The notes beneath the pieces were generated by a model that saw nothing but the letters and a program-made list of their open reading frames with translations, had not been told where the DNA came from and made no database searches. The position numbers were made by a program, and so were the translations under genes. From Bacillota bacterium (lineage in GTDB: Bacteria > Bacillota > DTU014), in contig JAAYAB010000212.1 in the NCBI GenBank assembly GCA_012719595.1, positions 14,677 to 78,676 of the forward strand: a DNA stretch of 64,000 nucleotides, read 5' to 3'. The first letter of the stretch is position 1, and each line of letters begins with the position of its first letter. Shown piece after piece: positions 1 to 40,412 of the stretch.

Positions 1-780
1 GCACCCGCTCATCGTACACATCGTGTAGACATGACCTACCATGAAGTTGACAACAGCGTCAAAATCGCGGATCGAAACCCTGCCGACATCTCTGCCGACC
101 CATTCGTCAAAGAGCTCGCAGAGGAATCCACCCCATTCCTCCCCTGTTATGCTGTACGGCAAGAGATTGCCCGACTCGTCGAATTCGACGCACGGGATGT
201 ACTGATGGTACAGAATGCCCATGTCGCACAGGTAGTTGTACACTTCCCTTGCTCTGTGGACATTTGCCGAGCTCACCAGCACGAGTGCGTTGAACTCGAC
301 CTTGTTTCGTGTGAGACACTCGATGCCCTCCAGCACCCTTGCGTGCGACCCGGTTCCGTCAGCCCTCTGCCGAAACCGGTCATGGATGTCAGAGGGACCA
401 TCGATACTCACGCCAACGAGGAACTTGTACTTGGAGAGCAAAGCGGCAAACTCGTCATCGACCAGCGTCGCATTGGTCTGAAGCCCGTTCGACACGACTG
501 AACCTCTTGGGCAGTACCGTTCCTCAAGCTCCACGACCTTTCGAAAGAAATCCACGCCCATGAGTGTGGGTTCACCGCCCTGCCATCCAATGGCGTAGCA
601 GCCCTGTCCCGTCGACATGAAGGAGGATATCATCCGTTCGAGGACATCGACGGGCATACGGTGCGTTTTTGAGTCAGGGTAAAGCGTCGACTTCTCGAGG
701 TAGAAGCAGTACTGGCATCTCAGGTTGCAGTCGGCAGAGGCCGGTTTGACGAGCAGAGAAAACGGCTTGGATGCACTCAT
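1..780 (-). CDS. Radical SAM / SPASM-domain maturase, anaerobic sulfatase-maturating enzyme (anSME) family; partial, C-terminus runs off the window start
   Basis: Not in the ORF track (no stop in window). Manual minus-strand translation from ATG at 778-780 gives MSASKPFSLLVKPASADCNLRCQYCFY...WQGGEPTL...LQTNATLVDD...KFLVGVSIDGP...KVEFNALVLV...RVSIRDFD, aligning motif-for-motif with Clostridium anSME (CxxxCxxC cluster plus SPASM region YNYLCDMGI...C). Confidence 0.85.
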   Translation of the reverse strand, partial: MSASKPFSLLVKPASADCNLRCQYCFYLEKSTLYPDSKTHRMPVDVLERMISSFMSTGQGCYAIGWQGGEPTLMGVDFFRKVVELEERYCPRGSVVSNGLQTNATLVDDEFAALLSKYKFLVGVSIDGPSDIHDRFRQRADGTGSHARVLEGIECLTRNKVEFNALVLVSSANVHRAREVYNYLCDMGILYHQYIPCVEFDESGNLLPYSITGEEWGGFLCELFDEWVGRDVGRVSIRDFDAVVNFMVGHVYTMCTMSGC

Positions 781-2418
781 CGAATTACCTCGCAGGATCT
801 GTAGGTACACTATCACTTCGACGCCGTCTGCCGGTTAGCCTCTCTGATCCAGATTTTGAGACGGCTGTCCGCTCAGCTGCTGACAGACCCCGTCGAATCT
901 GCGCCCACGCTGCCCGAATGCCTTCGGTCACCAGACGCCTCTGCTCGTCAGTAAGCTCGTCCAGCAGCATTGGACCCGACGTCAGGCCCACTGTAATGCG
1001 CATTTCACTCACCCCTACACGTCTATGAACCTGGGCAAACCAATAGACTGACACCGGAGGAAATAGGTTGACAGGGGGCTTCGCGGTTGGGTCAGCCACG
1101 ACTTGTAGCCCTGTATGCACGGGTCTCAACAGACGAACAGGCCAGAGAGGGCCAGTCGCTTGCGACGCAGATCTCGAGACTGTCGCACTACGCGTCATCG
1201 CGCGGATATGACAACGTACGAGTGTTCGTGGACGATGGATACTCAGCCAAGAACATGAACAGGCCTGCGCTGAGCGAACTGCTGTCTCTCGTCAGGGAGG
1301 GCCGAGTCGAAGCAGTATGCACTATGGCTATAGACAGGCTGTCACGCAATCTCCTTGACATGCTGAAGTTCATTGAACTGTGTGAGCAGCACAACACGTC
1401 TTTCATATGCACGGCGTTGAACTTCGACACGTCGTCGCCGATCGGCCGCATGACTCTTCAGATGCTGGCCGCCTTTGCGGAGTTCGAACGATCGATGATA
1501 GCCTCGCGAGTCAAATCGAACATGCACGAGATCGTGAGACAGAAGCGCAGGTTTCTGTCCAGTCCGCCGTTCGGCTATGAACTCGGCAGCGACGGAACGC
1601 TCAGGATAGTGGAGCCGGAGGCTCACTGGGTCAGAGCCGCGGCAGACCTGTACCTGGGCGGCCGGGGATACAGAGAGATCGCTCGGTGGCTGAACGAGTG
1701 TGGAGCGCCTCCAACACGAAGGGGCAACCCGTGGTCACCCTCATCTGTCAAGGCGATGCTTGCAAACAGAACATACACGGGAACCGTGGTCTGGGGAAGG
1801 CGCTGCACGGATTCCAAAGGCAGAGTCGCATGGAAAGCCGAAGACGAATGGACTGTCGCACACGACGCGCACGCGCCCATAATCGACCATGAGAAATGGA
1901 ATGCAATCGTTGAGAGAATGCAGGCGAGGCGCAACAGGGGCGGCATTCACCGGTCCCGCTCGAGGCTCGCCGGGCTGGTGCAGTGCGGGCACTGCGGGTC
2001 CAAAATGGTCTCGCGAATCTACGGCAACCGCGGGCCTAACAGAGGCCGGCGGATATATGTCTGCTCAGGGTATCAAAAGAAGGGAACATGCCGCTTCAAC
2101 TACATCTTCGCCGACATCCTGGAGGCTGAAGTGCTGAAGTGTCTGTCGGCCGCCAGCCCGGACCTGCCCGGCCCCAATCCGCCGGGACGCGGCGCTCACT
2201 GTGAGGCCGCGCCGCAAGTTGGCAAGAGAGCGGGAAATGCCACACAACGCCGAGACTCGAGTTCTCCCGTGCCCGGGTTCCTCTCCTGGCTGTGGAACGA
2301 AGCGGATATCAAGACGCTGCATCGATTCCTGGAGCTGGTCCTGGAATGCTGTGTGGTAACAGATCGACAGCTGGAAGAAGTGAGGATCTCGTCCCGGCTC
2401 ATATCACCGAAACGCAAT
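1..2418. mobile_element. Right-hand end of an intervening (skin-like) element inserted into a spoVK-like gene; carries a serine recombinase and radical-SAM cargo; left boundary lies outside the window
   Basis: Recombinase gene abuts the break in the spoVK-like reading frame at ~2418. Cargo genes are unrelated to the flanking core synteny (hfq-miaA-mutL...). The host gene is broken inside its Walker A codons. Confidence 0.6.
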
Positions 2419-2433
2419 CAGGATTGCCTCTAA
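1087..2433 (+). CDS. Large serine recombinase (resolvase/invertase N-terminal catalytic domain + recombinase domain + zinc ribbon), SpoIVCA/phage-integrase type
   Basis: VALYARVSTDEQ catalytic-Ser motif at N-terminus; CGHCGSKM...YVCSGY zinc-ribbon in the C-terminal half. TTG start at 1087 preceded by AGGGGG RBS 8 nt upstream; in-frame TGA at 1069-1071 rules out a longer N-terminus. Confidence 0.85.
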   Translation: MGQPRLVALYARVSTDEQAREGQSLATQISRLSHYASSRGYDNVRVFVDDGYSAKNMNRPALSELLSLVREGRVEAVCTMAIDRLSRNLLDMLKFIELCEQHNTSFICTALNFDTSSPIGRMTLQMLAAFAEFERSMIASRVKSNMHEIVRQKRRFLSSPPFGYELGSDGTLRIVEPEAHWVRAAADLYLGGRGYREIARWLNECGAPPTRRGNPWSPSSVKAMLANRTYTGTVVWGRRCTDSKGRVAWKAEDEWTVAHDAHAPIIDHEKWNAIVERMQARRNRGGIHRSRSRLAGLVQCGHCGSKMVSRIYGNRGPNRGRRIYVCSGYQKKGTCRFNYIFADILEAEVLKCLSAASPDLPGPNPPGRGAHCEAAPQVGKRAGNATQRRDSSSPVPGFLSWLWNEADIKTLHRFLELVLECCVVTDRQLEEVRISSRLISPKRNQDCL

Positions 2434-2758
2434 AGACCATATGGAGCACCTGCGGCTCAGACAGCAGCTGGGCCTCTCTGCGCAATCGCTGCACCTCGAC
2501 AAAGGCATAGATCTCCTGGACCGTTTTCTTGACCTTGTTCAGCCCAACGAGTTCATCGAGTTCGTCCATCACCCGTCTGATTCTCTGATTCCTGTGCTCT
2601 TCATCCATAGCCAGCTTCAGCGCAGGAGCACTGCTCGTCCGCATGAACTCGACGACCTGCGCAGGGGACACTGTTCCCGTCTCAAGGAAGCGAAAGACAT
2701 CATCTCTGCTGTCTGTCAAGACCATCGACATGCCGTCACGACACCCCCAATGCAGCAT
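2399..2758 (-). CDS. spoVK: 5' segment (N-terminal ~113 aa) of a SpoVK/CbxX-family AAA+ ATPase gene, split at the Walker A motif by the inserted element
   Basis: ...DELDELVGLNKVKKTVQEIYAFVEVQRLRREAQLLSEPQVLHMVFRGNP matches SpoVK (..LIGL..VK..V.E....V.....R...GL.....LHMIFKGNPGTGKTT) up to the G of the P-loop, then terminates. Located immediately downstream of hfq. None of the other two minus frames downstream encodes the missing GTGKT. Confidence 0.7.
   Translation of the reverse strand: MLHWGCRDGMSMVLTDSRDDVFRFLETGTVSPAQVVEFMRTSSAPALKLAMDEEHRNQRIRRVMDELDELVGLNKVKKTVQEIYAFVEVQRLRREAQLLSEPQVLHMVFRGNPDCVSVI
2410..2426. other. Element/host junction (putative attR-type crossover region) inside the recombinase 3' end and the Walker A codons of the host AAA+ gene
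   Basis: Minus-strand host frame reads ...LHMVFRGNP then DCVSVI-stop instead of the GTGKTT expected for this family. Identity to the expected codons is lost after the first nucleotide of the Gly codon (~2418). The last ~5 codons of the recombinase are encoded by host-side DNA. Confidence 0.5.
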
Positions 2759-2820
2759 CGGTGCATTTTATGCTCGAACCGCAGGCGGTGTGACAATGGC
2801 ACGGTTCTGTGGAAGACACA

Positions 2821-3114
2821 TCAACTCTCGTCCCCGGTGGAGGCAGGCGCCTCTCCTCCTTGCGGCGAGCGTTCGCAGTGCGATGCGCGCATGTGGTCGC
2901 ACGGCGATGCCAGCGATATCGTGGACACCGCGTGTTTGTAGACCAGATGTTGCTTTCCGTCGGACTCTAGCACGATCGTGAAGTTGTCGAAGCCGCGCAC
3001 GATCCCTCTCAGCTTGCAACCATTCACCAGGAATACCGTTACCATCGACGATTCTTTCCGCACCTGGTTCAGGAATCCATCTTGGAGGTTGATCTGCGCC
3101 TTCCCAGAAGTCAT
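2821..3114 (-). CDS. hfq: RNA chaperone Hfq
   Basis: [59 protein letters not shown] is a canonical Sm fold. Start taken at the internal ATG ([11 protein letters not shown]), not the longer track ORF. Confidence 0.9.
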
Positions 3115-34439: not shown

Positions 34440-35120
34440 TCACCAAACAGCAGGATTATCCTTCTTGGGAGCCTGGGAGGCCTCTCGGATGAGGATCTCA
34501 TGCAGCTTCGCACCTGTGGTGCGAGATAGGATGCCGCCGATCACCGCAACGTCGCTCCTGTCCAGCCTATCCGAAGAGACGACTGCCTCGACGCCGAGGT
34601 CAGTCACGAAGACAACTGCGTCCTCAAACCCACTGGCCCGGATCAGGCTTTCTGCCGAGCTCTCAGCCTCCATCCGCGAAACCAAGCCCAGAAGGAGGCG
34701 CTGTGTTTCTTCTGCCGGCTCACCGCGGGCCCCCGCCTCTTCAAGAGCCTCGCGCAGGAGATCGATTTCCCTGCTGCGAGCGTAATCTCGAGACAAGCGC
34801 GCAGCAGCCAGACTTGACCCCTCGTAGTCATATTCTACCCTTGCCGAGACCAGCACTTGCTCGATTTCTGGATCAATGTGAACGAGGTACGAATCGGCAT
34901 CTGCTACTGGTTTCTCTCCCAACGCAGGTGCGGTCACGGTCGCTTCGCTCTGAGTGAGCGCACTGCTGGTCGTCACTACAACCTGTCCGCCGAAGTCGTA
35001 GTCGCCCATCGACGAACCTCGGCGCCAGATTGCGGCAATCGAGAGCCCGCCGGCCAAGCACACAATCGCCACTACGAGGTATACGTATCTCCTAGGGATG
35101 AGCAAGATCCTAATAGACAT
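34440..35120 (-). CDS. spoIIIAH: Stage III sporulation protein AH
   Basis: Last gene of the spoIIIA block; N-terminal TM helix plus YscJ/FliF-like domain; position immediately upstream of accB as in B. subtilis. Confidence 0.75.
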   Translation of the reverse strand: MSIRILLIPRRYVYLVVAIVCLAGGLSIAAIWRRGSSMGDYDFGGQVVVTTSSALTQSEATVTAPALGEKPVADADSYLVHIDPEIEQVLVSARVEYDYEGSSLAAARLSRDYARSREIDLLREALEEAGARGEPAEETQRLLLGLVSRMEAESSAESLIRASGFEDAVVFVTDLGVEAVVSSDRLDRSDVAVIGGILSRTTGAKLHEILIREASQAPKKDNPAVW

Positions 35121-35126
35121 GCTGAC

Positions 35127-35756
35127 TCAAACCTCCCTTTCAACTACTGCCACCCGATGAAGCGCAATGCCGAGGACAGCCGACACGGCCTGCGCAATCT
35201 CGAGCTTCATCTCGGGGCTCCGCGCGCCGTCTGCAACGACGAGCACTCCTCTCACCTTTGGAGGTTCCGATCCGACAACAACGATTTCTTCTCCGCCTCC
35301 GGGTGCCCGGGTGATCACTGGTTCTTCGGTCATCTTCGCGCGAGTGGTGACGCGAGTGCCCCCGCTCGAGTCCTTTTCCTCAACCTGTTCCTTGTCCTCG
35401 CTCTTGCTCGTGGCGTAGACCGTTCGAGCGTCCGCGTCGAGCGTCACTATGACTGACACTGCACCTACTCCCCTCATGCGACTCAGTGCGGCCTCCAGGT
35501 CGCGCTCCAGGACGGCTGCATAGTCGCCAGCAGTGTCGACGCCATGTGAGGAGAGCAGCGACGTGGGCTGCTCCACGGAACGCGGCTCACCGCCGTCCCT
35601 GGTGCCAAACAGCCCTGGTCCCAGGACGATCAGGGCAACTCCAAGGGTCGCGAGAAGAACCAGCGGTACAACGCCAATGCCAGGCTTGCCCCCAGTCTCG
35701 TCGGAATCCTGACCAGGGCTTGTTCTACGAATGAGCCTTGAGAACCAATCAGTCAC
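35127..35756 (-). CDS. spoIIIAG: Stage III sporulation protein AG
   Basis: Single N-terminal TM helix then ring-forming domain (AVSVIVTLDADARTVYATSKSEDKEQVEE...VRGVLVVADGA); operon position. Confidence 0.75.
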   Translation of the reverse strand: MTDWFSRLIRRTSPGQDSDETGGKPGIGVVPLVLLATLGVALIVLGPGLFGTRDGGEPRSVEQPTSLLSSHGVDTAGDYAAVLERDLEAALSRMRGVGAVSVIVTLDADARTVYATSKSEDKEQVEEKDSSGGTRVTTRAKMTEEPVITRAPGGGEEIVVVGSEPPKVRGVLVVADGARSPEMKLEIAQAVSAVLGIALHRVAVVEREV

Positions 35757-36186
35757 GCGAACCGCCTACCTTCACTTGTGCAATCGTCTCGACCGTTATC
35801 GCGCCGACTCGTGATAGCCCGCCAGAACTGGCTGACACAGTCGAGGCTGAGGGGGCCGCACCTTCTTCGCCAGCGAGTCCAGACAACTGGGAGTGAACGG
35901 CTGCGAGAGTCCCGTGAACCAGGGCCTCTCCGGCTAGTAAGTAGTCGTCGCCCGCGGCCAAGCCGGCTGCATCCGTGACGCCAAACTCGAGGTCGAACGA
36001 GAAGTCTTCAGCAGCCAGGCCGAGCACGATGTCGAACAACAGCGCAATGACGCAGAGCCCGATCACGACTCTGGCGAGGCCGGATGTCGCTGTGCGCGGC
36101 ATCAGCAACTCGATAAACGCCACCACAACCAGCGCGACGGACAACACGTAGACCCAGGACCCAACGGTCGCTATCATCACAAACAC
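35749..36186 (-). CDS. spoIIIAF: Stage III sporulation protein AF
   Basis: Two N-terminal TM helices, ~145 aa; operon position between AE and AG. Confidence 0.7.
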   Translation of the reverse strand: MFVMIATVGSWVYVLSVALVVVAFIELLMPRTATSGLARVVIGLCVIALLFDIVLGLAAEDFSFDLEFGVTDAAGLAAGDDYLLAGEALVHGTLAAVHSQLSGLAGEEGAAPSASTVSASSGGLSRVGAITVETIAQVKVGGSRD

Positions 36187-37470
36187 CTACCGCAGCATCT
36201 GTGGAAGGGTTCCGACGCCGAGTATCACAGCGATGGATACGATGAACATGATGCCCGTGGCCGCCGTGCAGTACGCCAGATACGACAAGTTGTCTGCGAA
36301 GTCGCCCAGGCAATCGGCTGCTGCCGAATCGCCGAGCGGCTCGACGAGGCTTGCCACCAGCCGGTACAGCGCGACGATCGCCACTATCTTAAGGATCGGG
36401 TACAGGCAGACCACTGCAACAGTTAGGACCCCTGCGATGCCGACGGTGTTCTTGATGAGGAGAGACGCACCCGCTACGACCTCCATCGCATCGGCAATCG
36501 CACTCCCGACCACTGGAATAAGCGTTCCAGCTGCGAGCTTGGCAGTCTTCATCGTAACGGCGTCGCCGAACGAACCTACCAGACCCCTGATCGTCATCGC
36601 TGCCACGAAAACTGCGAACACGAGGGCCATCACCGTCGTTGCTGCGCGCCGCAACAACTTGGCAAGCTGCAGCGCTCTGGGCGTGCCGGACGCCCGCGTG
36701 ACTACGCTGACGACCGCTGAGAACAGAACGAGCGGCACGACCACACCTCCGACCAGTGTCGAAGACCCAGTCACAGCCATGAGAACCGCAGGACTGAGCG
36801 CGGCCGCTGATGCGGCCCCACCCATCGCGACCATCAGGCTGAACAGCGTTGGCGTAAGCGACTGCACGAACCCGACCATAGTGTCGACGGTTCCGCGAGC
36901 GATCTCTGCGGCCGTTCTGAAACTCGACAGCCCGATCAACAGAATCACAAGGTAGAGAACTGCCGACACTACTCGCGCGACGGTGTCTTCCGACAGTGAG
37001 TCGCTCAGGTTTCTCGATACGGCGGCAATGACAGCCACGAGCAGCAGTTGCCCTAGCAGCGCCGCGTTCTGAAGCACCTCCCGAATGAAGTAGCTTAAGA
37101 CTCCTCTGACGAACTTCACCGGATTCAGCGGCGCGTGCTCGCGTGCGACCAGCCACTGGTATAGATTTAGATCTACTCCTGCTGCACCGTATTGCTCAAC
37201 CAGGCCGTTCATCTCGTGCTGAAGCCGGTCAAGTTCGAGCTGGTCAGCTTGATATTCGATTGCGCTCTCGAGTGCCGCTGCAGGAGCGTCGGCGCTCCGA
37301 CCAGCTGGCGCACCGGCGCCTTGACCGGTTGGCGCGTTCAGACCCTGACCTGCAGGCGCCGCGAGCGAGTTCAACGACACTGCAATTACGCTGGCCACAA
37401 CGACCGACACTACCCACGCACTGAGGTTCAAGCGACCGGCAGCGCACACCAAGCACACACGTCCCCCCGG
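36187..37470 (-). CDS. spoIIIAE: Stage III sporulation protein AE (polytopic membrane protein)
   Basis: Multiple TM helices with G/A-rich loops typical of SpoIIIAE. Start uncertain: the track ORF overlaps spoIIIAD, so the true start is probably just after the spoIIIAD stop. Confidence 0.75.
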   Translation of the reverse strand, partial: PGGRVCLVCAAGRLNLSAWVVSVVVASVIAVSLNSLAAPAGQGLNAPTGQGAGAPAGRSADAPAAALESAIEYQADQLELDRLQHEMNGLVEQYGAAGVDLNLYQWLVAREHAPLNPVKFVRGVLSYFIREVLQNAALLGQLLLVAVIAAVSRNLSDSLSEDTVARVVSAVLYLVILLIGLSSFRTAAEIARGTVDTMVGFVQSLTPTLFSLMVAMGGAASAAALSPAVLMAVTGSSTLVGGVVVPLVLFSAVVSVVTRASGTPRALQLAKLLRRAATTVMALVFAVFVAAMTIRGLVGSFGDAVTMKTAKLAAGTLIPVVGSAIADAMEVVAGASLLIKNTVGIAGVLTVAVVCLYPILKIVAIVALYRLVASLVEPLGDSAAADCLGDFADNLSYLAYCTAATGIMFIVSIAVILGVGTLPQMLR

Positions 37471-37475
37471 AGAGA

Positions 37476-37871
37476 CTACGGGCTCATCCGCGCCAGCTGC
37501 TCGAGTGCTGACACGATCGCTCTGAACACCGGCAGGGCGATCAAAAGGATCATGACCTTTCCGGCCAGCTCGACCTTGGAAGCAAGCGCTGACTCGCCCG
37601 CATCTCTGCACATCTGTGCAGAGAACCCTGCGATATACGATATCCCGACGACCTTGAGAATCGCCTTAATGTATTCGGGCTGGATGCGCGCTCTGGCCGC
37701 GAGATCCTGGAGCGATGTCACCGCCTGTGCAAGGGAATCCACGATCCACAGAAGCAGCACCACTCCGAGCGTCATGCTCAACAGCGTTGCCATCTCGGGG
37801 GAAGCCTGCCGCACCAGCCCTATTACCAGCAACCCCACAATAGCCAGGCCCGCGATGGACAGGATGTTCAT
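37476..37871 (-). CDS. spoIIIAD: Stage III sporulation protein AD
   Basis: 131 aa, four TM helices (MNILSIAGLAIVGLLVIGL...), SpoIIIAD family. Confidence 0.8.
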   Translation of the reverse strand: MNILSIAGLAIVGLLVIGLVRQASPEMATLLSMTLGVVLLLWIVDSLAQAVTSLQDLAARARIQPEYIKAILKVVGISYIAGFSAQMCRDAGESALASKVELAGKVMILLIALPVFRAIVSALEQLARMSP

Positions 37872-37880
37872 CAGAACACC

Positions 37881-38102
37881 TCACCAAAGGTAGAAAGTGG
37901 TTCGCACTCGGTCGATGAGCTCCGCCACCCGCTGGACAACCAGCAAAAACACAGCGATGCTTCCCGCGACCACGACCCACAAGCCGTAGTCTTCCTTCCC
38001 GGCCTGTTTCAGAATGGTCTGGACGACCGCAACCAGCATGCCGATGCCTGCAATTGTGAAGATCAAGTCCAAGAGAGCCATCTCCCCTGCCGCTGCAGCC
38101 AC
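37881..38102 (-). CDS. spoIIIAC: Stage III sporulation protein AC
   Basis: ~70 aa two-TM protein (ALLDLIFTIAGIGMLVAVVQTILKQAGKEDYGLWVVVAGSIAV), SpoIIIAC family. Confidence 0.8.
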   Translation of the reverse strand: MAAAAGEMALLDLIFTIAGIGMLVAVVQTILKQAGKEDYGLWVVVAGSIAVFLLVVQRVAELIDRVRTTFYLW

Positions 38103-38168
38103 GCAGCCCTGAACCAGGAACTCGAGCGGCGCCGGCTGCGTCAGTACCCCGTCGAGGCTTGTGTCACA

Positions 38169-38708
38169 TCAGACTATGAACAGCGCAAGCGTGGCTCCGC
38201 CCATTGCGCCCAGATAGCGCCAGAGTCGGGGATATGTATCAAGATCGCGCCGCGCTGATTCTTCGTTTATCGCAAGAGTCTCTCTGGCGAGCCTGATGTG
38301 GCTCACCTGGTCATCCCGACCGCCTGCGCCAAGAGCGGCGAACAGGCGCCCGAGCACTTGGAGGTCGTCATCGCGGTACGCAGGAAAACCGTGTGCCCTG
38401 CCGCCCCGTTTGACGGCAAGCAGTACCCGCGTCCATCCCTGTGCGAGCGTCAGATGTGGGTTCGACATGAGTTCATCTGCGACCGCGCACATCAGGCGCC
38501 CTGCAGGCCCGCGCACCGCGAGCCCGACCGATGACAGCGCTCTCGGAAACGGTTGAACGGTTCTCGCGACGTATGTCTCCAGCATCAGCAGAGCGTGCTG
38601 CATGGCGCAGAGGTCCCTGTGCCTGGCATCGTAGCGCCGGGCCTCTCTGTCACCAAGAATGAGCCCGCTGACAATCAACAGAAGCGCTCCGGCGAGCTTC
38701 AGGCCCAA
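38169..38708 (-). CDS. spoIIIAB: Stage III sporulation protein AB
   Basis: N-terminal TM helix plus cytoplasmic helical domain; size and operon position match SpoIIIAB. Confidence 0.75.
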   Translation of the reverse strand: MGLKLAGALLLIVSGLILGDREARRYDARHRDLCAMQHALLMLETYVARTVQPFPRALSSVGLAVRGPAGRLMCAVADELMSNPHLTLAQGWTRVLLAVKRGGRAHGFPAYRDDDLQVLGRLFAALGAGGRDDQVSHIRLARETLAINEESARRDLDTYPRLWRYLGAMGGATLALFIV

Positions 38709-39702
38709 GCTGGACCACCTTCCCTATTTCAGCCACTTCGTCAGCCTCCAGGATCTCTGCCACGGTTCCCACGCGCGGGCGGTCGCTGAGCCGCACATAG
38801 CGGTCAAACAGACCTCTTGACAACATGGCCGCAAGCGCAGGCCGCCTTATCAGCTCCTCGATGGAACCGGCATGGGCCGAGGCCAGCAGTGCGACTCCAG
38901 CGTTCAGGCATTCCTCGACAGCGTCGACGTCCTCTGGCCGGCCGAGCTCGTCTGTGACAATCACCTGGGGCGACATTGCTCGAATCACCATCATGATGCC
39001 GACTGCCTTTGGGACGCGGTCGAGCACATCTGTGCGCATCCCGACGTCTCTCTGAGGCACTCCACAGTAGCACCCTGCAAGTTCGGATCTTTCGTCGACG
39101 ATTGCCACTCTGAAGGGCTTCTTGGAGCCGATTCCGTCGCTCAACCTTCTCGCCAGGTCCCTCAGCAAGGTAGTCTTGCCGCATCCCGGCGGAGAGAAAA
39201 TCAGACTCCGGTAGACCCCCAGTGGTCCCCCCAAGAGCCTGGGAAGCACAGCTGCTGAGCAGCCCTTCGCATCCCTCGCTACTCTCAGGTTGATGCTGGA
39301 GACATCAGCGATGGACTCAACCGTGCCACCGCTGGTCACCGCCCTCCCCACCACGCCGACCCTGTGCCCGCCCGCGACCGTGAGATAGCCTGACTTCAGC
39401 TGCTCTTCGGCCGCGTACAACGACCTGTCCGTCAGCAGTTGCAAGGCCTCATCTCTCATTTCACGAGTGAAGCAGATGGCTTCCTCGCCCGGGCGGCACA
39501 GTCCGCGATGCCCCAAGAGCCGCTCGCCGTCCTCTAAAACGAGAATCACCGGCCTACAGAGCCGCAGCCTGACCTCCAGAAGCGCGTCCAGGGTATTCAG
39601 ATCGAGCATGCTCAGCGAGCGTCTCACACGCCCGGGAAGGTACGCCGCAAAGCCGGGAACGCTGTCCGCCGTTTTCTGAACGTATCCGCTCGATGTGCTC
39701 AT
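38650..39702 (-). CDS. spoIIIAA: Stage III sporulation protein AA (AAA+/secretion-ATPase-like)
   Basis: Walker A SPPGCGKTTLLRDLAR, Walker B IVTDELG; N-terminal ...LEVRLRLCRPVILVLEDGERLL matches SpoIIIAA. Confidence 0.9.
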   Translation of the reverse strand: MSTSSGYVQKTADSVPGFAAYLPGRVRRSLSMLDLNTLDALLEVRLRLCRPVILVLEDGERLLGHRGLCRPGEEAICFTREMRDEALQLLTDRSLYAAEEQLKSGYLTVAGGHRVGVVGRAVTSGGTVESIADVSSINLRVARDAKGCSAAVLPRLLGGPLGVYRSLIFSPPGCGKTTLLRDLARRLSDGIGSKKPFRVAIVDERSELAGCYCGVPQRDVGMRTDVLDRVPKAVGIMMVIRAMSPQVIVTDELGRPEDVDAVEECLNAGVALLASAHAGSIEELIRRPALAAMLSRGLFDRYVRLSDRPRVGTVAEILEADEVAEIGKVVQLGPEARRSASVDCQRAHSW

Positions 39703-39854: not shown

Positions 39855-40412
39855 CTACACTCTCTCGAGATACTCCCCGGTGCGAGTGTCCACCCGGATC
39901 ACGTCTCCCACGTTTATGAAGAACGGCACCTGCACCGTCGCACCCGTTTCCAGCACCGCCGGCTTCCCTCCGCCTGTCGCAGTGTCTCCTCTGAAGCTGG
40001 GCGCAGTCTCGACGACTTCCAGCTCAACGAAATTGGGGAGCTGGACGCCTATCGGGCTCCCTTCGTACATCGCCACGTTTACGACCATGTTCTCCTTGAG
40101 GTACTTGACGCCCTCGCCTATGGCGCTCTCAGAGAGAGTCATCTGCTCGTATGTATCGGTGTCCATGACGTAATAGTCGTTGTCGCTCTTGTACAGATAC
40201 TGCATCTCTCTGTATTCGACTCTTGCGGTCGGCACTTTTTCGCCTGCTCTGAACGTGCGTTCATGAACGTAGCCGGTCTTCATGTTGCGAAGCTTGGCTC
40301 GCACGAACGCGGCGCCTTTGCCCGGCTTCACGTGCTGAAAGTCGACGACCTGGTACACCTCGCCGTCTATCTCGATTGTCAATCCAGTGCGAAAGTCATT
40401 TGTCGAGACCAT
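39855..40412 (-). CDS. efp: Elongation factor P
   Basis: [47 protein letters not shown] is canonical EF-P (KPGKG loop). Confidence 0.95.

Follow-up and report, generated by a model that had tools for sequence, protein, structure and literature searches.

Serine recombinases excise intervening elements from the sporulation genes sigK, spoVFB, spoVR, gerE, and spsM in the mother cell (PMC5595907, PMC4191935), and the elements are named by the gene that they split: skin in sigK, vfbin in spoVFB, vrin in spoVR, SPbeta in spsM, and gin in gerE (PMC5595907, PMC4191935, PMC5025042). Skin elements span 2.6 to 48 kb and carry genes for 2 to 67 proteins, the smallest having two genes; the recombinase is the only gene common to them, and skin-like elements also split cotJC and spoIIID (bioRxiv 10.1101/2022.02.25.481979). 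Here we describe a 2,918-bp element that interrupts spoVK within the codons of its Walker A motif (P-loop), in a 64,000-nucleotide stretch of an uncultured Bacillota bacterium of the DTU014 lineage (assembly GCA_012719595.1, contig JAAYAB010000212.1; hereafter the window). A first-pass annotation of the window had noticed the split gene with a recombinase at the junction and had compared it with skin, while knowing of no report of spoVK as a target. The observation is confirmed and the skin-like interpretation is supported, whereas excision in the mother cell is what we infer; as for spoVK, SPbeta-like phages had already been reported to integrate there (bioRxiv 10.1101/2021.11.22.469490). We put the probability that this is a domesticated skin-like gene-intervening element, excised programmatically in sporulation, at about 0.7.

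Like skin with its recombinase SpoIVCA (Galperin et al.), the element has a large serine recombinase (LSR) at its edge, splits a gene of mother-cell sporulation, and is flanked by short repeats that would restore the reading frame; its 2.9 kb also falls within the 2.6- to 48-kb range of skin elements. It differs in its target, which is the spoVK Walker A motif and not sigK, in the family of its LSR, and in its cargo of a small open reading frame (ORF) and a radical SAM gene; moreover, excision of skin has been demonstrated, while the present element is known from sequence alone. The SPbeta-like prophages in spoVK (Goe14 and a prophage of B. subtilis BS155; Kohm et al.) share the host gene. The position of Goe14 within spoVK is not stated in the text of that paper, and the likeness drawn here is that of the gene. 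In both Goe14 and the present element, the integrase gene has attP within its 3' end, and its product therefore has different C termini in the integrated and circular forms (here 448 and, as predicted, 477 amino acids). Those prophages, however, have a 3-bp AAG core and reside in Bacillus, one of B. velezensis being about 205 kb long, whereas the element described here is nonphage, measures 2.9 kb, has a core of 12 bp, and belongs to an uncultured lineage of Bacillota. With no phage-like gene among its three, it does not qualify as an SPbeta-like prophage, which would have phage genes and an SprA- or Goe14-like integrase. The gin element in gerE of B. cereus ATCC10987 (recombinase GirC with GirX; PMC5595907) is likewise nonphage, is removed by a serine recombinase so that a sporulation gene is reconstituted, and has a short consensus core within an imperfect inverted repeat; its GirX is a small accessory factor, a role for which the small ORF of the present element is a candidate. 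In contrast, gin measures 28.6 kb, has three recombinase genes, and was apparently transferred recently, while the element in spoVK is ten times smaller and vertically inherited. The fdxN element of Anabaena with its recombinase XisF is also a gene-splitting element excised by a serine recombinase in a terminally differentiated cell, but in another phylum, from another target gene, and with the accessory proteins XisH and XisI. Full-text searches of the literature found no description of a small nonphage element in spoVK or of the present LSR clade. The particulars of note are the P-loop target, a long vertical history, an LSR that has no coiled-coil, and a new family of small proteins.

The 5' segment of spoVK (codons 1 to 104, ending in ...LHMVFRGNP) lies on the minus strand at 2420..2731 and was recognized by its match to the SpoVK model and by comparison with orthologs. 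It is contained in a minus-strand ORF at 2399-2758 that reads ...EPQVLHMVFRGNPDCVSVI*, since in the integrated state the frame runs six codons into the element (DCVSVI*), to position 2399. In agreement with the first-pass annotation, the fragment aligns to positions 2 to 52 of the 261 positions of TIGR02881 (SpoVK) and halts exactly before the Walker A GTGKT, and comparison with orthologs places the break exactly at the P-loop. A start at 2758 was not borne out: the gene begins at the ATG at 2731 (MSMVL...), which is kept together with its ribosome-binding site in six lineages. No second SpoVK-like sequence, and hence neither the missing P-loop nor the missing C terminus, was found by tblastn in the 64-kb window. 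The two explanations that had been named as fatal to the skin comparison find no support either, as no intact paralog with this N terminus was present among the best database matches, and the fragment is the syntenic spoVK gene and not a stray non-SpoVK CbxX/CbbX remnant.

The missing half was found on longer metagenome contigs (L001 to L006) retrieved by an exact-protein look-up of the LSR. They show 9 mismatches to the window over 12,433 bases and were taken as the same organism; position x of the window corresponds to position x+8914 of L001. The spoVK 3' half starts at L001 8427 and runs downward; it had been expected outside the window, beyond the far end of the element, and there it is, not far away but only 486 bases to the left of window position 1. 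It reads ...NRGNPGTGKTTVARILG... (RGNPGTGKTT...) and contains the AAA and AAA_lid_6 domains, so that leftward extension yielded both the predicted GTGKTT segment and a matching attachment (att) core on either side. The break falls inside the Walker A codons (G-N-P|G-T-G-K-T), and therefore the inherited chromosome would not give rise to a functional AAA+ ATPase. When the cassette is cut out in silico at the core AA, the products are a circle of 2,918 bp and an in-frame SpoVK of 318 amino acids, the latter of which matches TIGR02881 as its best family over positions 2 to 261 of 261, with 396.6 bits.

A 12-bp core, AGAGGnAATCCT, flanks the element as a direct repeat (AGAGG[C/T]AATCCT at both junctions), and the longer junction sequence TAGAGG[C/T]AATCCTG occurs twice, exactly 2,918 bp apart, a distance that defines the size of the element. 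The attL core, AGAGGCAATCCT in the minus-strand reading, occupies 2420..2431, with the crossover dinucleotide AA predicted at 2424-2425; the attR core, AGAGGTAATCCT, is its direct repeat at L001 8416-8427, outside the window. The repeat was present in every interrupted lineage examined for it. For three lineages, namely, the present one (lineage A) and two relatives described below (B and C), the attL and attR sequences were recombined on paper into attB and attP, and the centers of dyad symmetry were scored. In A and C, both sites have their best center on the Asn-codon AA (AGAGGn|AA|TCCT), which in B is tied with another center; attP has 13 to 14 symmetric positions out of 22, compared with about 5.5 expected by chance. 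The sole mismatch in the core is the wobble base of the Gly codon, to the left of the AA: attR invariably has T there, and attL has C or G, which are also the bases of the intact relatives. This pattern fits a crossover at AA. Serine integrases use a nonpalindromic central dinucleotide within an imperfect inverted repeat (PMC5595907), and crossover at the AA of the core is predicted here as expected of such enzymes. The predicted rejoined attB junction would read GGTCTTTAGAGGCAATCCTGGAACAGGCAAAACG, and the predicted attP junction of the circle CTGAATAGAGGTAATCCTGATTGCGTTTCGGTG.

The element contains three genes, for the LSR, a 72-amino-acid protein, and a 419-amino-acid radical SAM/SPASM protein, and no transfer, replication, or phage genes were found in it. 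The LSR gene (1087..2433, plus strand; 448 amino acids) encodes Resolvase, Recombinase, and Zn_ribbon_recom domains (PF00239, PF07508, and PF13408), all scoring above the cutoffs, and the nucleophile Ser14 and the zinc cysteines Cys300, Cys303, Cys326, and Cys335 are conserved. As had been noticed at first reading, the gene crosses the junction: its last codons, QDCL*, are antisense to the spoVK codons F-R-G-N-P, so that it ends inside the attL core, and its stop codon (2431-2433) is provided by the Phe-Arg codons of spoVK. In the predicted circle, the lengthened LSR frame would pass through the junction at L001 8415-8428. The closest relative in the PDB is SprA/YokA (9dxh), and the best NCBIfam match is XisF (NF041201; 190.9 bits, below the 375-bit cutoff of that family); the nearest phage LSRs in INPHARED are at most 34% identical. 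The LSR gene and the spoVK 5' segment are convergent and overlap, and antisense transcription is therefore possible. In lineage A, an 18-nucleotide insertion or duplication (GGTTG...GGTTG) precedes the LSR start at 1066-1089; it creates an out-of-frame TTG at 1068, and the start at 1087 is now 27 nucleotides from the conserved GGAGG. The insertion does not occur in the related lineages A', B, C, and F (see below).

The radical SAM/SPASM gene (1..780, minus strand; Radical_SAM domain), with a C-terminal SEC-C motif and the description "anaerobic sulfatase maturase", has its N-terminal 260 codons inside the window and in full extends to L001 8435, 480 bases to the left. With 394.3 bits over positions 2 to 360 of the 363 of TIGR03942, the full-length protein exceeds the curated cutoff (349.45) and is by that measure a member of the anaerobic sulfatase maturase family. 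The GC content of the element (57.2%) and that of third codon positions (GC3; about 69 to 70%) are the same as those of the host.

The same spoVK split was found in six lineages, counting the present one. Lineages A' (L107), B (L016 to L018), and C (L019 to L021) have the same gene order of hfq, spoVK 5' half, LSR, small ORF, radical SAM/SPASM/SEC-C gene, spoVK 3' half, and ynbB, the element measuring 2,829 bp in B and 3,053 bp in C. Lineage F (L112), a short contig, contains the 5' junction with spoVK together with the LSR gene, the small ORF, and a portion of the radical SAM gene, which is thus found in A, A', B, C, and F. In the lineages compared, the break always follows F-R-G-N-P, and in the four lineages that yielded both halves, each half is free of frameshifts and stops. 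An uninterrupted miaA-hfq-spoVK locus, whose existence in related genomes had been proposed as a check, is present in the relatives D (GCA_036678725.1) and E, which have hfq-spoVK-ynbB in otherwise identical synteny. Two further LSRs, 54 to 58% identical, sit at the same spoVK codon with other cargo, one in a Syntrophomonadaceae metagenome-assembled genome (MAG) and the other in a Bacillota MAG from biogas. The Syntrophomonadaceae element is about 3.6 kb long and carries an aminotransferase gene, a YjcQ-like gene, and a 55-amino-acid ORF. The larger biogas element (L105 1-6831) carries GGDEF, metal-resistance, YitT, HSP20, and ABC-transporter genes; its 5' junction alone was seen, the contig not reaching the far end and the spoVK 3' half. 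A scan of genome contigs with the LSR yielded relatives at most 44% identical, in Bacilli, none of them next to spoVK or a radical SAM gene, and a scan of metagenome contigs with an alignment of three LSRs (generic pattern YARVSTDE) yielded distant LSRs alone, none adjoining spoVK. The LSRs that are 40 to 43% identical (P0176 and P0142) are not in spoVK. Since LSRs of 40 to 44% identity lie elsewhere, the clade of the spoVK site is limited to an identity of about 54% or more, and judged from these loci it is dedicated to the P-loop site of spoVK, with exchangeable cargo. A C-terminal D-x-L marks those LSRs whose stop lies in spoVK antisense; as a universal signature of the clade it was rejected, as not all members have it.

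The element appears to be old. Among lineages A, B, and C, identities are 62 to 65% for the LSR and 65 to 71% for the radical SAM protein, compared with 60 to 62% for MutL, 58 to 61% for SAM_MT, 70 to 74% for MiaA, and 69 to 73% for YnbB encoded in the flanks. Because the divergence of the element tracks that of the flanking genes, and because its GC content and GC3 are those of the host, vertical inheritance over a long time is indicated. Judged by the flanking genes, B is more closely related to D and E, which are intact, than it is to A or C. The simplest history would be that the element was acquired long ago and that D and E later lost it by precise excision, although ancient transfers may have played a part.

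Selection was estimated by the Nei-Gojobori method between A and A', both of which are split. The spoVK 5' half shows 0 nonsynonymous and 21 synonymous differences, and the ratio of nonsynonymous to synonymous divergence (dN/dS) is 0.047 for the 3' half, 0.10 for the LSR, and 0.10 for the radical SAM gene, with 0.07 to 0.17 for flanking genes. By these estimates, both spoVK halves, the LSR, and the radical SAM gene are under strong purifying selection (dN/dS 0 to 0.10). The element has been kept over a long divergence, with synonymous divergence (dS) from 0.4 to saturated. Because spoVK stays split through this large silent divergence and yet evolves like an essential gene, the split gene must have remained in use, and this is the strongest argument for its being rejoined.

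The small ORF (MRITVGLTSGPMLLDELTDEQRRLVTEGI...; 785..1003, minus strand) is divergent from the LSR gene and lies directly upstream of the radical SAM gene. Its product is conserved over the first ~40 residues in A, A', B, C, and F, with a dN/dS of 0.49 (A versus A'), and an ORF of ~70 amino acids is linked to the LSR in six lineages. The AlphaFold2 model consists of a β-hairpin and a long helix, with a predicted local distance difference test score (pLDDT) of about 90 for residues 1 to 40. There was no match in Pfam, in PHROGs, or in a Foldseek search of the PDB, and a profile search of 5.8 billion proteins found the family only within these elements. The 55-amino-acid homolog in the Syntrophomonadaceae element is also divergent from the LSR gene; because the homolog accompanies the LSR there, in an element without a radical SAM gene, the small ORF belongs to the recombination module and not to the cargo. 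Serine recombinases are accompanied by directionality factors such as SprB, CD1234, and GirX, and the small protein is a candidate for a directionality factor or regulator. That it might be a peptide substrate of the radical SAM/SPASM enzyme was considered and rejected, given its company with the LSR in the radical SAM-free element and the lack of cysteine in lineage A. Its tail (785-880) reads S-A-A-E-R in lineage A and S-L-P-D-R in B, both of which fit the sulfatase motif (C/S)-x-(P/A)-x-R modified by anaerobic sulfatase maturases; since A' and C do not have the motif, the resemblance is probably due to chance.

Between the two divergent genes, an inverted repeat, GTCTAT-N16-ATAGAC (1021..1048), fills the gap between their ribosome-binding sites. 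It is unique in the window, where 0.04 matches would be expected by chance, and is kept in A, A', B, C, and F despite saturated silent sites. It is probably an operator or a symmetric, bidirectional promoter; a confident assignment to a sigma factor or to SpoIIID was not reached. A sigma-70 scan predicted no promoter inside the element. The same scan did pick up a promoter-like motif upstream of spoVK, GTCACAC-N15-GCATAnnATGCA (2762..2794, minus strand), which is kept in four split and two intact lineages. The motif presumably resembles the -10 element (CATA...T) of the sigmaK/sigmaE mother-cell promoters of B. subtilis. An ORF of 166 amino acids on the opposite strand (2441-2941, plus strand), antisense to the spoVK 5' half and the hfq-spoVK spacer, is most likely an artefact of high GC content.

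Taken together, these observations suggest the following course of events. The inherited chromosome would carry the 2,918-bp cassette within the Walker A codons of spoVK. In the course of sporulation, and presumably within the mother cell as it differentiates terminally, the LSR would recombine attL with attR, perhaps assisted in this reaction by the conserved protein of ~70 residues. Crossover at the AA of the 12-bp core would release a 2.9-kb circle and leave the in-frame gene for the 318-residue SpoVK, to be transcribed from its own conserved promoter. The forespore would retain the element, which would therefore be inherited vertically. Excision itself, its timing and cell type, and the roles of the small ORF and the inverted repeat are parts of this scheme that we infer.

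Several points weigh against programmed excision, and the main one for lineage A lies in the recombinase. In an alignment of 47 LSR sequences, distant relatives have the coiled-coil motif within the zinc-ribbon domain (...KFQRQIQAYENGLI...DL..AR.R.E.ER...), as do lineages C and F, but it is missing in A, A', P0122 to P0124, and B. The AlphaFold2 model of the LSR (mean pLDDT, 79.7) is confident in the catalytic, recombinase, and zinc-ribbon domains and has a disordered linker at residues 363 to 392, where the coiled-coil hairpin should be. In model serine integrases the coiled-coil sets the direction of recombination; its deletion abolishes the activity of phiC31 integrase, while LI integrase without it has low activity that is equal on attP × attB and attL × attR and independent of the directionality factor (PMC10754689). 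The LI deletion was made in the laboratory, whereas the loss seen here is natural and affects a protein under purifying selection. The boundaries of the deletion differ between the A clade and B. Because F, the closest relative of the A clade (71% LSR identity), retains the motif, the loss in the A clade and that in B look independent; the coiled-coil thus appears to have been lost on more than one occasion. An excision-only cassette whose sites lie 2.9 kb apart in cis might tolerate or even favor such a loss.

The remaining objections concern the excised form and the identity of the parts. The reconstituted SpoVK, at 396.6 bits, does not reach the curated TIGR02881 cutoff of 422.95, and we assign it to spoVK because this near miss coincides with conserved synteny, with hfq upstream and ynbB downstream. 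With the reconstituted protein as a query, no intact, nearly identical SpoVK of lineage A was found among the best protein matches, which included several proteins 75 to 95% identical that consist of the 3' half only and two full-length relatives of 71 to 72% identity. No attP junction was found by an exact search of viral contigs. A 2,817-bp contig with P0125 was considered as an excised circle and rejected, since it is a linear fragment still holding the spoVK 5' flank. Expression of spoVK in the mother cell is known from B. subtilis and not from the present organism. Finally, searches of Pfam, PHROGs, and PDB folds related the small ORF to no known directionality factor.

The alternative that best survives these comparisons is that the element is a stochastic or stress-triggered switch acting in vegetative cells, akin to phase variation; the element would leave spoVK, and perhaps reinsert, and so divide the population into cells able and unable to complete sporulation. 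An LSR without the coiled-coil that enforces one-way recombination is what such a switch could use, especially given the equal action of the truncated LI integrase on both pairs of sites (PMC10754689), and D and E have either lost the element or never had it, so that excision in the germ line is plausible over evolutionary time. On the other hand, no assembly from the many samples holding the organism has an intact allele, the retention of the element from a dS of 0.4 to saturation argues against frequent germ line loss, and the characterized elements in sporulation genes are all developmentally excised (PMC5595907). We therefore consider a vegetative switch unlikely, while giving it some weight.

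Far less probable is a dead insertion, in which spoVK would be a pseudogene and the recombinase an inactive remnant. The loss of a motif important in model integrases and the failure of the protein and viral-contig searches to turn up an excised form would be in keeping with it, but decay is not what the genes display: although split, both halves are under strong purifying selection (5' half, 0/21 nonsynonymous to synonymous changes; 3' half, dN/dS of 0.047), both are free of frameshifts and stops in four lineages, the promoter and ribosome-binding site of spoVK are conserved, and the LSR has kept its catalytic and zinc-binding residues at a dN/dS of 0.10. The dN/dS results thus already make this explanation improbable. 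Equally hard to credit is a two-piece protein, whose separately translated fragments would assemble into a working ATPase without DNA rearrangement. The core repeat does duplicate the RGNP codons, so that the 3' ORF has a complete GNPGTGKT P-loop. The break, however, lies inside the ATPase core, where it parts the P-loop from strand β1 (LHMVF); what precedes RGNP in the 3' ORFs is the radical SAM gene's 3' end in another frame, and it differs between lineages; the 3' ORF showed neither a conserved start codon nor a conserved ribosome-binding site; and the conserved recombinase and att core would be left unexplained. Least probable of all is the recent, chance arrival in spoVK of an active mobile element (a mini integrative element or transposon), for although LSRs drive many mobile elements and relatives with other cargo occupy the same site, the genes of the present element diverge in step with the host flanks at the GC content and GC3 of the host, the element has no transfer, replication, or phage genes, and the nearest phage LSRs are at most 34% identical.

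The surrounding genes identify the host as a spore former. To the right of spoVK, the window encodes, in order, Hfq, MiaA, MutL, and MutS; hfq (2821..3114, minus strand), directly upstream of spoVK, anchors the synteny mutS-mutL-SAM_MT-miaA-hfq-spoVK-ynbB. Beyond the spoVK 3' half, L001 continues with a small GTPase gene, ynbB (Met_gamma_lyase), speD, and spoIVA, the last lying just beyond the edge of the window on longer contigs of the same organism. The 206-residue small GTPase gene (L001 7160-7780, left of the window) stands between the spoVK 3' half and ynbB in lineages A and A' only and is absent from B, C, D, and E; at the Syntrophomonadaceae locus, a full hflX takes its place. The spoIIIA operon (34440-39702, minus strand), which had been called complete, was found with NCBIfam matches to AA, AB, AE, AF, and AG; AA and AE score above the curated cutoffs, while AB, AF, and AG match below them. 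Because spoIVA adjoins the locus and the spoIIIA operon lies in the window, the host is taken to be an endospore former. The operon is preceded by efp (39855-40412) and followed by accB and accC, judged by size and order, an arrangement as in B. subtilis.

With an element cutting it at the codons of the P-loop, spoVK would join the few sporulation genes known to be controlled through DNA excision, a group thereby extended to uncultured, high-GC Bacillota of anaerobic digesters. Comparative data this clean are unusual for elements of the class, with the same 3-kb cassette at the same codon, relatives with an empty site, and gene halves with dN/dS values of 0 to 0.05, and they provide evidence, at the level of sequence, that a cassette can persist for a long time as a working part of sporulation rather than as a decaying prophage. 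We tentatively offer a fuller picture, which taken as a whole is still doubtful: an anciently domesticated, minimal three-gene cassette may have shed its coiled-coil naturally, apparently twice and independently, leaving a compact excision enzyme of 427 to 448 residues that would act together with a small partner protein not known before and with a conserved palindrome as operator, and in several Bacillota lineages the spoVK Walker A site may be the dedicated target of cassettes of this LSR clade. Recombinases without a coiled-coil, together with their small partner, are material for testing how serine integrases set direction, and such recombinases could serve as compact recombination tools.

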